IMG/VR virus record: IMGVR_UViG_3300032163_000007
Location: 21,587-85,586 of that record
DNA: 64,000 nucleotides
Source of the DNA: a virus
Lineage: Duplodnaviria > Heunggongvirae > Uroviricota > Caudoviricetes
Strand: one strand, 5' to 3'
Made by a program: the position numbers and the translations under genes. The notes below the pieces were generated by a model, which was given only the letters and a program-made list of their open reading frames with translations, ran no database searches and had not been told where the DNA came from. The stretch's first letter is position 1, and each line of letters starts with the position of its first letter. This document shows positions 33,048 through 39,556 of the stretch, piece by piece.

Positions 33048-33673
33048 TGGAAGAAGTATATGAGAAGACTATAATAGAGGCGCTTAATAAAGACCCAGCG
33101 GTGGCTCTACGTGATATCGCTGGAGCAGCCTCAAAAGCTGCGATTAGGACAAAGAAGAGGTTAGTTGGTCCATGGGGAAGGATCAAGTATGTTACTAAAA
33201 GGCTCAAGATGCGTTTACGAGGCGACTATGTTTGGCCTTCTAACTCTAGAGCACCAAATGATGATTCCAAGTTCATTACAGAAAATATGGAGAGAGCCTT
33301 TAGAAAACTTCCTCTAATATCCTTTGAAGAGGCTACTGCTCCCACTATCAGTCTTACTAAGACTGTAAAAGACATTGCCGAGAAGTATGAACTTGATCAG
33401 CCTACTGGGAACCTGAGTATACATGAATTTCGAATGAAACTCAAAGCGGATGCCGATCTGAAAGAGATGGAGTTTGAGGAGTTGAAGGCGGTTACTGAGG
33501 AGAGTCAGGGCCCTCCTCGCTGGGGTGACATGACAGAGAAGAGGTATAATCGCCTAACTAAACAATCTAATATAGAGATAGTCAAGGTTCAACAGGAGAT
33601 AGTGAGAAATCGTATAGAGTTTCCACGAAATCTAACAGAGTTTACCCAAGACTACAGAGGAGTGAAAAGATGA
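33047..33673 (+). CDS. hypothetical protein
   Basis: Listed ORF. Confidence 0.35.
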   Translation: MEEVYEKTIIEALNKDPAVALRDIAGAASKAAIRTKKRLVGPWGRIKYVTKRLKMRLRGDYVWPSNSRAPNDDSKFITENMERAFRKLPLISFEEATAPTISLTKTVKDIAEKYELDQPTGNLSIHEFRMKLKADADLKEMEFEELKAVTEESQGPPRWGDMTEKRYNRLTKQSNIEIVKVQQEIVRNRIEFPRNLTEFTQDYRGVKR

Positions 33674-34038
33674 CAAAAATACAAATACTTAAGAATGGAG
33701 CCTGTTTTGTAGGAGACGTTCTCATAGAAGACGCCTTTTTTATGTTTAAGCCTGAGGGGCTTGAGGTCATAGGGTTGGCAAGACATCGCAGACACTCCTG
33801 GGATAACATTACTGAGGATGATAGTGACTACTGGAAAGAAATTGATCCAGACTGTATTGAGACTCGTAAGAGACTTTTCTCTAAGAAGACCTATGGGTTT
33901 GTTGCAGCTGGTTTCCACTATCTTAAGAAATGTGAGGACTTCCAGTTGCTTACTAATAATTACGTAATCGTCGGTAATTACGAGCCGTATGTAGTAAAAG
34001 AGGGTATGGGATTAACGCGGTTCACAGAAAACGGTTAA
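33670..34038 (+). CDS. hypothetical protein (first gene of the deazaguanine island)
   Basis: Listed ORF; translationally coupled to the queD homolog. Confidence 0.35.
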   Translation: MTKIQILKNGACFVGDVLIEDAFFMFKPEGLEVIGLARHRRHSWDNITEDDSDYWKEIDPDCIETRKRLFSKKTYGFVAAGFHYLKKCEDFQLLTNNYVIVGNYEPYVVKEGMGLTRFTENG

Positions 34039-34051
34039 GAAAGGACAGAAG

Positions 34052-34555
34052 ATGATCATAAGAAAAAGTTTTAAGTTAGAGATGGGTCATAGAGTAGTAG
34101 GTTCCTATACAACGGGATGCCAAAGCAATCACGGACATAGTGCCGTAGTGGAGCTGTTTTTAGAGGCTAAGACATTGGATCACACAGGAATGATTATTGA
34201 TTTTACTGAGGTTAAAGATCTTCTTGGAGACTTTTTCAACCAGTTCGATCACCGCACACTAGTATGGGACCAAGACGTTGAGTATTTGGAAGCTCTGGAG
34301 AAGCTAGGTTTTGCTCTCATGATAGTGCCTTATAACAGTACTGCAGAGAACATCAGTAAGCACATGTACCAGTTTGTTAGAGAAGCCCTTAAGAACCGCG
34401 TTAGAGTGGCAAGTGTGCGCTACCACGAAACTGTCACGGGTTATGCTGAATACTTTGTGGAAGACTACGACAGAGACGCCATGAACAACAACCTGTTTGA
34501 TCTCAGTCATGTGTTCTTGTCAGAAGCTACATGCATTAAGGAGTACCAACGATGA
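34052..34555 (+). CDS. queD: 6-carboxy-5,6,7,8-tetrahydropterin synthase QueD (PTPS family)
   Basis: 'EMGHRVVGSYTTGCQSNHGHS' (H..C..HGH zinc/catalytic motif); 'TGMIIDFTEVKDL'. Confidence 0.75.
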   Translation: MIIRKSFKLEMGHRVVGSYTTGCQSNHGHSAVVELFLEAKTLDHTGMIIDFTEVKDLLGDFFNQFDHRTLVWDQDVEYLEALEKLGFALMIVPYNSTAENISKHMYQFVREALKNRVRVASVRYHETVTGYAEYFVEDYDRDAMNNNLFDLSHVFLSEATCIKEYQR

Positions 34556-35220
34556 AAATAAATACAATATACCCAGCAATCGAAGGAGAGGGAGTCCGAG
34601 TAGGCACTCCTCAGCTATTCATCCGTACACAAGGATGTAGTATTGGATGTAAGAATTGTGACACTGTGGGATCTTGGAATCCTAACACAGGCACAGAAAT
34701 GTCAGTGAAAGAAATCTTTCAAAAGGTCATTGATAGTGGTCTTGACTCAATTAGCATCACCGGAGGCAACCCCCTAGAACAGGATCTCTACGACCTAGTG
34801 GGATTACTTCACCGAAGAAATTTTACAGTTAATATCGAGATCACTGGCCAAGACAATGACGAAGAGGTTCTTGACTTAGTAGACTTTATTAGTTGTGACA
34901 TCAAGACTCCGTCCACTGGGGTTACAGCTAATCTAGATATTATCGACGACATCTTAAAAAGCTATGGCCACTGCACACAGATCAAGTGCGTATGTGCTGA
35001 CCAAGCTGACTTAGACTTCATTATCGATTGTTACAACCGGTTCAAAGATAGACTTGATTACCATATGGTTATCACGCCTTGTTGGACAGAGCGCGCAAGT
35101 GCTGCTGATGTTGAGTTTATTGATCATATCATGAAAACTGTTATGGATAACAACTACCACATGCGAGTCATTGTACAACAGCATAAGCTACTCTTCGGAA
35201 GTAAACGCGGCGACGTATGA
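34552..35220 (+). CDS. queE: 7-carboxy-7-deazaguanine synthase QueE (radical SAM)
   Basis: 'LFIRTQGCSIGCKNCDT' matches the QueE CxxxCxxC-D motif; 'ITGGNPL'. Confidence 0.75.
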   Translation: MKINTIYPAIEGEGVRVGTPQLFIRTQGCSIGCKNCDTVGSWNPNTGTEMSVKEIFQKVIDSGLDSISITGGNPLEQDLYDLVGLLHRRNFTVNIEITGQDNDEEVLDLVDFISCDIKTPSTGVTANLDIIDDILKSYGHCTQIKCVCADQADLDFIIDCYNRFKDRLDYHMVITPCWTERASAADVEFIDHIMKTVMDNNYHMRVIVQQHKLLFGSKRGDV

Positions 35221-35357
35221 TTGAGCGTTTATTAAAGCAACTACCACTAAGCGTCAGGAGAAAGATATATGAGATCCTTCGCGAGGAGTTTGAGTGGACC
35301 AGAGAAAAGATTGATGCAGCAATAGACAAGATTATAGAGGAGAACCAACCAAAATGA
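35217..35357 (+). CDS. small hypothetical ORF (46 aa), overlaps the queE stop and the PRTase start
   Basis: Found by eye between listed ORFs. Confidence 0.25.
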   Translation: MIERLLKQLPLSVRRKIYEILREEFEWTREKIDAAIDKIIEENQPK

Positions 35358-37919: not shown

Positions 37920-38260
37920 TGGAAACTTTTAGAAGCACACTTATCGCTGGCGTTATCACAGAGCACTTTAAACTGCCTGTGATAGAGCTGGCTCTGAAGA
38001 TTGATGAGGCTGTTTCCAGATTTGAGGCTCTTGATGAGATGGAAAAGCTCACAGAGGTTAGCAACTGGTTTCTAGCTGATAAGGAAAGAGCCAGAGGGCT
38101 CATTGAGAAGATGGATGAGTTGATGGGCATTACCAGAGACGCCGATGGAAATCCTATTGATGATGAAGACGATGGTAGGACCTATCTGACTCAGTCAATG
38201 GGACCACAGTACGGCGCCAATAAGCTGTTTGGAATCGTAGATATAGAGAAGGAGCAATAA
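37919..38260 (+). CDS. hypothetical acidic protein
   Basis: Listed ORF. Confidence 0.35.
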   Translation: METFRSTLIAGVITEHFKLPVIELALKIDEAVSRFEALDEMEKLTEVSNWFLADKERARGLIEKMDELMGITRDADGNPIDDEDDGRTYLTQSMGPQYGANKLFGIVDIEKEQ

Positions 38261-38740
38261 ATGGCAGTTAATTCACAGAGTTTTTATGCAAGACCAGAGG
38301 CAGCACCAGTTGCAGTAGCCACACCAGTAACCCCAGCACCTAAGTTAGAGGATCACTTTAAATCAGAGATGATTAATTTAGATCTGCTAACTGAATTCGC
38401 TGAGAAGAGCTACATTGTAGTTCGTACACAGTTTGAAGGTTTTCACCGATACCCAGCAGCACCTGAAGGTGTGGAGTTCTTAAAGAATGAACACCGCCAT
38501 ATGTTTCATATTGAAGCTAAGATCGAAGTGTTTCATAGCGATAGAGAGCTCGAATTTATCCTCGTAAAGCGATTTATTAACACACTCCTTACCAACTCAC
38601 AGCAAGATCACAAAAGCTGCGAAATGATCGCAGAAAGCATCACTAATGCACTTGTGCAGAAGTACGGCAAGAGAGACATCACTGTCGGGGTATTTGAAGA
38701 TGGTGAGAACGGTGGTTTGTACGAACGAGTATACAAATAA
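38261..38740 (+). CDS. PTPS/QueD-family T-fold paralog lacking the catalytic Cys (PTPS-III-like)
   Basis: 'FHRYPAAPEGVEFLKNEHRHMFHIEAKIEV' parallels QueD '[21 protein letters not shown]', with Glu in place of Cys. Confidence 0.5.
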   Translation: MAVNSQSFYARPEAAPVAVATPVTPAPKLEDHFKSEMINLDLLTEFAEKSYIVVRTQFEGFHRYPAAPEGVEFLKNEHRHMFHIEAKIEVFHSDRELEFILVKRFINTLLTNSQQDHKSCEMIAESITNALVQKYGKRDITVGVFEDGENGGLYERVYK

Positions 38741-39024
38741 TGGCTAAGTACCGAAAGAAGCCAGTCGTAGTTGAAGCCGAGCAATGGTGGAACATGGAAT
38801 CTGATGTTAAGGATGTTGAGCAATATCTTCACCCCCATACTGATGAAGACAGTGAAGAGCTCTCCTGTGGTTACTGTGGAAATACCCTAGCCAATCATGG
38901 CTGGGTTAACACCCTAGAAGGTGGACATATAGTTTGCCCCGGTGATTTCATCATCACTGGCATTGTTGGAGAGAAGTATCCTTGTAAGCCAGGGATCTTT
39001 GCTGACACCTACGAAGCCGTTTAA
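38740..39024 (+). CDS. small Cys/His-rich protein
   Basis: 'CGYCGN...HIVCPG'. Confidence 0.35.
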   Translation: MAKYRKKPVVVEAEQWWNMESDVKDVEQYLHPHTDEDSEELSCGYCGNTLANHGWVNTLEGGHIVCPGDFIITGIVGEKYPCKPGIFADTYEAV

Positions 39025-39046
39025 TGGGAATCCTCAACTGCCCCAA

Positions 39047-39556
39047 ATGTGTATCGTAGTTAATCTATTTGGAGGACCGGGCGTAGGTAAATCAACTATA
39101 GCCGCTCAACTCTTCTCCATGCTGAAATGGAACAACATCAGTTGTGAGCTCATTACAGAGTTCGCTAAGGAATTGGTCTGGGCTGGTAGCCACAGTGAGC
39201 TAGATGATCAACTCTACGTGTTTGCCAGACAGTACCACAAGCAGTGGGTGATGAAGGGTCAAGTGGACATCATTATAACTGATAGTCCGATTCTTTTAAG
39301 CCTAATCTATGGCAAAGAGCGTAGCACCAGTTTTCACGGCCTAGTCCTAGATAAGTTTCACGAGTTCCGCAATCGTAATATTCTCCTGCAAAGAGAGAAG
39401 CCCTACCACGAAAAAGGTAGAATGCAGACCCACGACGAGAGCAAGGTCATCGATACTAAGATGAAGTTAATGCTAGATAAGTTTCAGATCCTACACAGTA
39501 CTATGCCAGGTAACGAGTCCACGGCTCAACACATCTATGGCTCAACACATCTATGA
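39047..39556 (+). CDS. P-loop NTPase (nucleoside/nucleotide kinase-like)
   Basis: Walker A 'GGPGVGKST'; Walker B-like 'VDIIITD'; start uncertain (the listed alternative start overlaps the previous gene). Confidence 0.45.
   Translation: MCIVVNLFGGPGVGKSTIAAQLFSMLKWNNISCELITEFAKELVWAGSHSELDDQLYVFARQYHKQWVMKGQVDIIITDSPILLSLIYGKERSTSFHGLVLDKFHEFRNRNILLQREKPYHEKGRMQTHDESKVIDTKMKLMLDKFQILHSTMPGNESTAQHIYGSTHL

Follow-up and report, generated by a model that had tools for sequence, protein, structure and literature searches.

A phage 7-deazaguanine island without QueC resembles the dDG system of phiST and carries a recurrent purine phosphoribosyltransferase

What does a phage make when it encodes a pathway to 7-carboxy-7-deazaguanine (CDG) but no QueC, and what is a purine phosphoribosyltransferase (PRTase) doing among the genes of that pathway? 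Both questions are raised by a 64,000-nucleotide stretch of a Caudoviricetes genome (positions 21,587 to 85,586 of IMG/VR virus record IMGVR_UViG_3300032163_000007), the whole of which we call the window. It corresponds to about positions 100,697-164,696 of the 171,862-bp metagenomic contig k141_804020 (ENA ERZ27247924). From ~33047 to 39556 of the window runs one gene string, its stops and starts abutting or overlapping and interrupted by few short gaps, that encodes FolE2, QueD, QueE, a Gpt-like PRTase and a second T-fold protein; these genes, like the short ORFs, the AAA_28 and AAA_18 genes and the DpdA3 gene described below, lie on the + strand. A preliminary description of the island left the end product as CDG or an uncharacterised derivative of it, and suggested that the PRTase could open a route outside the DpdA base-exchange mechanism. 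We read the region as the biosynthetic section of a system of the phiST type, in which 7-deazaguanine (as 2'-deoxy-7-deazaguanine, dDG) takes the place of guanine in virion DNA, with the PRTase recycling guanine, and we put the probability of this reading at roughly 0.65.

The enzymes that would lead to CDG were assigned by family membership. FolE2 (GTP cyclohydrolase IB, 36810-37625) matched Pfam GCHY-1 with E = 5e-72 and scored 224.1 bits against the 215-bit cut-off of NCBIfam NF010200. QueD (6-carboxytetrahydropterin synthase, a T-fold enzyme, 34052-34555) matched Pfam PTPS with E = 1.6e-25 (89.9 bits, cut-off 22.4) and contains the CxxxHGH motif, which reads GCQSNHGH; its NCBIfam equivalog score of 67.7 bits falls under the 89.25-bit cut-off. 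The start of QueE (34552-35220) overlaps the QueD stop by 4 nt. QueE matched Pfam Radical_SAM and Fer4_12 and has the CxxxCxxC motif, and its top four NCBIfam families are all QueE, each under its cut-off (102 bits against 206 for the best). It is also homologous (E = 1e-18 to 1e-20) to the QueE genes in related islands, with which it is syntenic. The preliminary description had placed these three genes correctly, and the pathway that it drew from them holds up on the same family assignments: FolE2 would convert GTP to dihydroneopterin triphosphate (H2NTP), QueD would convert H2NTP to 6-carboxytetrahydropterin (CPH4), and QueE would convert CPH4 to CDG. A weak radical SAM open reading frame (ORF) of 292 aa, downstream of the window near the contig end (contig positions 170,270-171,148), also matched the QueE profile, weakly, with E = 5e-7.

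QueC (7-cyano-7-deazaguanine synthase) was not detected. Among the scanned + strand ORFs of the window there was no Pfam match to QueC (PF06508), QueF or tRNA-guanine transglycosylase (TGT), and the SGGxDS motif is absent from all six frames of the window. Searches of the window with home-made profiles for QueC, QueF and MazG were negative, as they were across 17 kb of its flanks (10 kb upstream and 7 kb downstream), so that 81 of the 172 kb of the contig were covered. The absence of QueC first noticed in the window is confirmed, and by profile it extends to the flanks. QueC is likewise lacking in published DpdL phages (PMC10516641).

The fate of CDG is suggested by the second T-fold protein (38261-38740). 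Cui et al. (2023) proposed a QueD-like protein, DpdL, as a CDG decarboxylase in which an LxxxHRHxF signature replaces the CxxxHGH of QueD (PMC10516641). The window protein reads FLKNEHRHMF at this site, in agreement with the signature, and L74, H78, R79, H80 and F82 are invariant among 41 homologs. It matches ~29 phage records in all. These include phiST (CGPG_00067, gp040) and ACP17, with E = 5e-10 and 2e-14 in a tblastn search of a phage collection and E = 2e-15 and 5e-20 in a blastp search of a small local database. The phiST and ACP17 proteins are the two that were cloned by Cui et al. (PMC10516641). The window protein had no Pfam match. Its AlphaFold2 (AF2) model had a pLDDT of 86, and the best Foldseek match was E. 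coli QueD (4NTK), followed by 6-pyruvoyltetrahydropterin synthase (PTPS), with target TM-scores up to 0.76. The preliminary description had rightly seen a QueD-like T-fold, but the Glu that it placed at the catalytic Cys resulted from a register error: the QueD Cys aligns with Leu. It had also put the protein forward as a candidate for new chemistry, whereas sequence and modelled fold together place it in the published DpdL family of predicted CDG decarboxylases.

The annotated start of DpdL may be too far upstream. The conserved core begins near 38405, and the N-terminal 48 residues (38261-38404) are Ala/Pro-rich, modelled as coil and absent from >100 homologs; the true start may be an internal Met at about residue 37.

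An enzyme that would place the base in DNA is encoded outside the gene string. About 7 kb downstream of DpdL, separated from it by tRNA and RNA-repair genes and lying beyond the coordinates of the preliminary description, which missed it, the gene at 46566-47360 encodes a 264-aa protein. Blastp matched it to phiST gp042 (CGPG_00065, the DpdA3 prototype) with E = 1e-9, to immuto DpdA with E = 2e-8, and to proteins of D479, Ahp1 and MA9V-3 with E = 4e-14 to 3e-16; tblastn matched the 'DNA guanine transglycosylase' of immuto_2-6A. Homologs adjoin DpdL in Rhizobium phage RHph_I1_18, Vibrio phage D479, Aeromonas phage Ahp1 and Chryseobacterium phage MA9V-3. There was no Pfam match (including PF01702) and no NCBIfam match, a single-sequence search of the PDB returned nothing, and a profile search of the PDB gave a weak top match to the bacterial DpdA 7UI4 (E = 0.096). 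Because the sequence matches in the PDB were so weak, the identity of the protein was settled through structure prediction. With the AF2 model (pLDDT 86, pTM 0.86), the top 50 PDB matches found by Foldseek were all TGT or DpdA 7UI4, at a probability of 1.00 and E about 1e-7.

The predicted active site agrees with this assignment. Exactly three Asp residues (Asp52, Asp83 and Asp206) are invariant among 12 family members, and like bacterial DpdA and TGT the window protein would combine a TIM barrel with three invariant Asp in the same order. Alignment to 7UI4 puts Asp206 at the S-I-D-S nucleophile motif, and an HLLG...S-x-D-S motif aligns with the nucleophile region. The active-site residues of bacterial DpdA are Asp95, Asp130 and Asp256 (PMC10164549); judging from their order along the sequence, Asp52 and Asp83 would correspond to the other DpdA aspartates. 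The window protein differs from bacterial DpdA and TGT in length (264 aa versus 358-413 aa), in being without the large C-terminal insertion, and in that no DpdB partner was identified. A TGT (PF01702) was considered for 46566-47360 and rejected: the protein was filed as DpdA3 because it has no PF01702 match and is short, and it is without the C-terminal subdomain. With a predicted DpdA3 encoded 7 kb downstream, there is no need for a route that bypasses DpdA.

Is a DpdA3 locus with DpdL expected to lack QueC? We compared 80 DpdA3-like IMG/VR loci, retrieved with a 6-sequence DpdA3 alignment and scanned with profiles made from proteins gathered in this analysis. QueC was present in 59 loci and DpdL in six, and no locus had both. 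Those with DpdL are also the six closest relatives of the window DpdA3 (31-39% identity), and all are without QueC. Four of them have the compact order QueE-QueD-[PRT]-FolE1-DpdL-DpdA3; of the remaining two, one has no detected QueD and the other (L027) has only DpdL, an AAA_18 gene and DpdA3. DpdL and QueC do not co-occur in these loci, and a lack of QueC is what one would expect of the DpdL branch. In the window the DpdL module is dispersed, and FolE2 stands in for FolE1.

The same gene content is found in phiST. Both encode FolE, QueD, QueE, DpdL and DpdA3 functions and no QueC (Cui et al, 2023; PMC10516641), and both have a DpdL with the LxxxHRHxF signature, homologous AAA_18 genes before DpdA3 and homologous Gpt-like PRTases in the genome. 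They differ in that phiST has FolE1 rather than FolE2 and encodes MazG, which we did not find in the window or its flanks; in the position of the PRTase, which lies 18 kb from the island in phiST and inside it in the window; in the 7 kb that separate DpdA3 from DpdL in the window; and in their phage backbones, which are unrelated. All dG in phiST is replaced by dDG, and no dCDG is present (PMC10516641). DpdL and DpdA3 are encoded together with FolE2, QueD and QueE and without QueC, as in phiST, and the likely product is therefore dDG in phage DNA and not dCDG. This makes dDG a likelier end product than the CDG or uncharacterised derivative first proposed.

The proposed sequence of steps after CDG is as follows. 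DpdL, a QueD-derived T-fold protein without the catalytic Cys, would decarboxylate CDG to 7-deazaguanine, in line with the published prediction, and DpdA3 would then swap guanine in phage DNA for 7-deazaguanine, as its homology and the phiST phenotype suggest. The PRTase would join guanine to phosphoribosyl pyrophosphate (PRPP) to give GMP and, in turn, GTP, refilling the GTP used by FolE2. The guanine would come from its one-for-one release by base exchange or from host DNA breakdown. At 43% GC, base exchange would free ~74,000 guanines per genome copy, and each 7-deazaguanine would cost one GTP.

A guanine-recycling role for the PRTase is argued from its sequence and from its distribution. 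As described before, it is embedded in the island (35354-35782, 142 aa), and we read it as a type I, Gpt/xanthine-guanine PRTase (XGPRT)-like purine PRTase; it matched Pfam PF00156 (Pribosyltran) with E = 2e-12. Its best NCBIfam family is the xanthine PRTase NF006613, at 53.8 bits against a cut-off of 138, and its closest PDB relatives are the archaeal purine PRTases 1VDM and Sulfolobus GpT-2 together with E. coli XGPRT (Gpt), which at ~150 aa are of similar length. All seven sequences in an alignment have the PRPP-loop Asp-Asp pair and a Trp at the position of XGPRT Trp134, and five have Lys where XGPRT has Lys115. We take the Asp of XGPRT and hypoxanthine-guanine PRTase (Asp92 in XGPRT) to interact with the purine N7 and the Trp to stack on the base. 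The position of this catalytic Asp is Glu in the window PRTase and Asp in all phage homologs. Apart from the Glu and the low score, the window gene differs from E. coli Gpt in its location inside a 7-deazaguanine island, where it is translationally coupled within the QueD-QueE...FolE2 string. From the alignment, the protein appears to keep a 6-oxopurine PRTase-like active site.

Homologs of the PRTase are rare and concentrated. They occur in 22 of 50,697 phage records, namely four immuto records, five of the phiST group, nine of the Campylobacter CP220 group, Synechococcus phage BUCT-ZZ01, two Brevundimonas phages and one unannotated fragment. The family is thus found in all three phage groups for which complete G replacement is reported, with fdPreQ1, the 7-(formylamino)methyl derivative of dDG, in immuto, dDG in phiST and dADG, the 7-amido derivative, in the CP220 group (PMC10516641). 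BUCT-ZZ01 has its PRTase in a DpdL island, flanked by QueE and QueD, and in the two Brevundimonas phages it adjoins FolE. Among the 80 DpdA3-like loci the PRTase is present in 22, always within the island, 15 times beside FolE and seven times flanked by QueC and QueD; of the 42 loci with a visible FolE, 18 have it. Seven contexts were sampled in metagenomes: three lie in que islands (with the orders QueC-QueD-PRT-QueE, FolE-QueD-PRT-QueE and QueD-QueE-x-PRT-FolE-QueC-QueF), two lie beside a GMP-reductase-like gene, one is cellular and adjoins a nucleoside deoxyribosyltransferase, and one is uninformative.

The PRTase occurs in DpdL-type, QueC-type and QueC+QueF-type islands. Like the window, immuto has QueD, QueE, an in-island PRTase beside FolE, and DpdA3, and its G replacement is complete (PMC10516641), but it also has QueF, the formyltransferase DpdN and MazG, has no DpdL, and ends at fdPreQ1. 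Because the same PRTase is present in islands with differing end products, and elsewhere with salvage genes, guanine is the simplest common substrate, and the usual place of the gene beside the GTP-consuming FolE fits a role in guanine recycling. Salvage of guanine to GMP and GTP is, on sequence and gene context, the most likely role of the protein.

The system itself has been known since 2023 (Cui et al.), and the puzzle of the missing QueC is already explained in the literature. What appears to be new here is the PRTase as a recurrent component of DpdA3-type islands. A phosphoribosyltransferase is not mentioned in Hutinet et al. 2019 or Cui et al. 2023, two core papers on phage 7-deazaguanines, and we found no discussion of a link between the PRTase and these islands in the literature searched. 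What the PRTase does bears on how DpdA3 phages reach 100% replacement and on whether replacement is post-replicative. The locus also adds an uncultured ~172-kb, distantly SPO1-like phage to the few that are predicted to have 7-deazaguanine in place of G, and it is an example of a module that is split and that employs FolE2.

Further observations on the PRTase family concern its neighbors. The closest homologs of the window protein (37-40% identity) were found in two metagenomic phage contigs, one of 253 kb, beside an IMP dehydrogenase (IMPDH)/GMP-reductase-like gene (L013, 10001-11448, and L019, 6600-8478), a pairing that resembles ToyH/ToyE and TubE/TubD. An HD_4 protein encoded a few kb from the PRTase in both contigs is homologous to window 60429-60902. 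In phiST a DNMK-like (deoxynucleoside monophosphate, dNMP, kinase) gene (gp065) directly follows the PRTase gene (gp064), and the large subunit of ribonucleotide reductase is encoded two genes further on; gp065 is of the same family as the gene directly after DpdA3 in D479 and Ahp1. A search for PRTase islands without any DpdA turned up a weak DpdA-like ORF in L015 (hhalign E = 0.0018) and detected none in L018. In L014, a 110-kb contig, QueE and FolE are separated by a called gene of 398 aa (11124-12320) with nine in-frame stops under table 11, which suggests stop-codon reassignment or a mis-called gene.

Several points weigh against a phiST-type system with guanine recycling. CDG decarboxylation is a prediction for every DpdL, and heterologous tests of it failed; base exchange in DNA is likewise a prediction for DpdA3, whose heterologous expression failed (PMC10516641). 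The QueC scan covered 81 of 172 kb, so a distant QueC is possible in the remaining ~91 kb. The island is dispersed, with its DpdA3 at a distance from DpdL, and uses FolE2 where its relatives use FolE1. The PRTase has Glu at the catalytic Asp position. In several phages the PRTase and DpdA3 adjoin dNMP-kinase-like genes, and MazG lies within the phiST and immuto islands. These links to kinases and MazG suit nucleotide-level chemistry at least as well as they suit salvage.

Such chemistry forms the basis of the best-surviving alternative, which we consider unlikely yet worth weighing in full. Here, in this and other DpdA3-type phages, complete replacement of G would come about at the nucleotide level, before replication: the PRTase would couple 7-deazaguanine or CDG to PRPP, phage kinase-like proteins and NrdD/NrdG would carry the product to 7-deaza-dGTP, a family A polymerase would incorporate it, and DpdA3 would have an auxiliary or different role. 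If true, this would contradict the present claim that every 7-deazaguanine modification in phages is made post-replicatively. The match between the PRTase family and the complete-replacement groups (phiST, immuto and CP220; PMC10516641) and the translational coupling of the gene within the QueD-QueE...FolE2 string agree with such a route, as do the MazG genes of phiST and immuto and the kinase genes: gp065 after the PRTase in phiST, the order dNMP kinase-FolE-PRTase in StAshley, and a dNMP kinase after DpdA3 in D479 and Ahp1. So do the cytoplasmic ADG nucleoside reported for CP220 and the failure of DpdA3 to work heterologously. The window encodes NrdG (51539-52237; NrdG2, 165 bits, above the cut-off) and, from reading its translation only, NrdD (the anaerobic ribonucleotide reductase, 13193-16261), and a family A DNA polymerase is encoded just upstream of the window.

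A precedent for a PRTase acting on a 7-deazapurine exists in the tubercidin and toyocamycin clusters. TubE is a proven CDG-specific PRTase that uses CDG and PRPP (PMC6112128), and TubE and ToyH, like the window protein, are purine-type PRTases encoded with FolE, QueD and QueE homologs. The likeness is one of description and gene context, and TubE has 194 aa against 142 aa in the window.

Other observations argue against entry at the nucleotide level. The phage homologs all keep the Asp aligned with XGPRT Asp92, which we take to contact the purine N7, an atom absent from 7-deazapurines. Guanine is simpler as a substrate shared across the DpdL, QueC and QueC+QueF islands, no MazG that would clear dGTP was found in the window or its flanks, and most PRTase islands are accompanied by a DpdA-family gene. 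A kinase beside DpdA3 is also rare, in one of 80 loci, as counted with kinase profiles that were built from 1-3 sequences and may be insensitive. We therefore retain guanine recycling beside a DpdA3 base exchange as the preferred reading.

That QueC or Gat-QueC is encoded elsewhere in the genome, with 2'-deoxy-7-cyano-7-deazaguanine (dPreQ0), dADG or a derivative as the product and with DpdL doing something else, is improbable. The extent of the contig inspected (81 of 172 kb) leaves room for such a gene, and DpdA3-like genes are more often accompanied by QueC (59 of the 80 loci), but DpdL and QueC co-occur in none of those loci, the six closest DpdA3 relatives have DpdL without QueC, and the published DpdL phages are without QueC as well (PMC10516641).

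Somewhat less probable again is a pathway that ends at CDG, with dCDG, the 7-carboxy derivative of dDG, itself as the DNA base. Such an end point would agree with the absence of QueC from the scanned sequence, and it has precedents in DpdA2, which can insert low levels of CDG in a queC mutant of E. coli, and in an archaeal virus that contains dCDG (PMC10516641). It leaves the conserved DpdL of the window without a place, however, and phiST, with the same gene set, has complete dDG replacement and no dCDG (PMC10516641).

We give very little credence to the idea that the island is not aimed at phage DNA and supplies tRNA 7-deazapurine precursors or a free 7-deazapurine nucleoside or nucleotide, possibly with PurA in a tubercidin-like manner: the 19 tRNA genes and large RNA-repair set of the phage, a PurA gene 2.5 kb upstream of QueD, and the pairing of related PRTases with a GMP-reductase-like gene (compare ToyH/ToyE and TubE/TubD) would suit it, but the phiST type, which modifies DNA, is defined by its pairing of DpdA3 with DpdL, the GMP reductase, UbiD decarboxylase and Nudix hydrolase genes encoded in the tubercidin and toyocamycin clusters were not found in the window, and PurA passes ordinary adenylosuccinate synthase cut-offs.

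PurA (30321-31562) is a full-length adenylosuccinate synthase by its NCBIfam equivalog score (457 bits, cut-off 402), i.e. an ordinary one. It was also considered as a PurZ-like enzyme, which we rejected on a PurZ score of 142 bits, under the 300-bit cut-off, together with the PurA cut-offs that it passes. In deazaadenosine antibiotic pathways, PurA-type enzymes act after a PRTase and a GMP reductase.

The gene directly upstream of DpdA3 (45981-46415) encodes an adenylate-kinase-like P-loop protein, which matched Pfam AAA_18 with E = 4e-7 and adenylate-kinase-related proteins in the PDB. It is homologous to phiST gp041 and to MA9V-3 XQU63046, both likewise directly upstream of DpdA3, and the AAA_18 and DpdA3 pair is present in L027 as well. 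Apart from phiST, MA9V-3, the window and L027, no AAA_18-type kinase was seen beside DpdA3; the kinase of D479 and Ahp1 is a different one. A nucleoside monophosphate kinase beside DpdA3 as a general rule was rejected on the single case among the 80 IMG/VR loci, and the AAA_18 kinase-like protein is a lineage-limited accessory. The full ORF has 144 aa, with the domain at residues 8-122, and starts right after a tRNA-Thr gene (45888-45961); the ENA annotation gives a 112-aa ORF from ~46077, by which the P-loop is lost.

A second P-loop NTPase closes the gene string (39047-39556, with 38942, 38999 or 39047 as possible starts). It had been put forward as a further candidate for new chemistry. The protein is indeed present, with a match to Pfam AAA_28 (E = 1.4e-8) and to phrog_2107, 'thymidylate kinase', but a specific tie to the island did not hold up. 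Members of the family were found in 101 phage records, the majority from large phages without a DpdL match in the DpdL tblastn search, and often far from que genes, and the homolog in RHph_I1_18 lies far from the island. As a specific component of the system it was rejected on this wide spread and remote location; we do not count it in the system because the family is spread through many large phages without a DpdL match, and it is probably unrelated.

Short ORFs are interleaved with these genes, eight by our count rather than the seven first reported, and none of the eight has a homolog in any related island. At the left edge, a 122-aa ORF (33670-34038) has no Pfam or PHROG match. Three ORFs lie between the PRTase and FolE2 (35779-36066, 36066-36320 and 36304-36807). 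None of them has a PHROG match, and the first and third, the two that were scanned against Pfam, had no match there. Two lie between FolE2 and DpdL (37680-37919 and 37919-38260), the second without a PHROG match. A 94-aa ORF after DpdL (38740-39024) is a common phage protein that matched phrog_419 (function unknown) with E = 2e-27 and had no Pfam match.

The window as a whole is phage-like. Almost every ORF is on the + strand, and besides 19 tRNA genes it encodes gp32, RecA, the large terminase, portal, RtcB, ThyX and DNA ligase. The terminase is only ~35% identical to SPO1-like phage terminases. Megablast of the island against GenBank phages and an exact 40-mer search of IMG/VR with the island both returned no match. 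Besides the tRNA genes, a large RNA repair and translation set comprises RtcB, PTH2, an RF-1-domain (ArfB-like) protein, a TROVE/Ro-like protein, RlaP and a CCA-adding enzyme (21433-24985, 28603-29799, 32278-32679, 40484-42755, 43175-45961, 49015-49977 and 52269-53723). The NrdD ORF, of 1022 aa, appears from its translation to contain an intein-like insertion. ThyX (Pfam Thy1, 56431-57076) is broken into two ORFs, of 82 and 139 aa, that overlap and differ in frame, directly followed by a LAGLIDADG-type ORF (57100-58155); the split could be a frameshift, a sequencing error or the scar of a mobile element.

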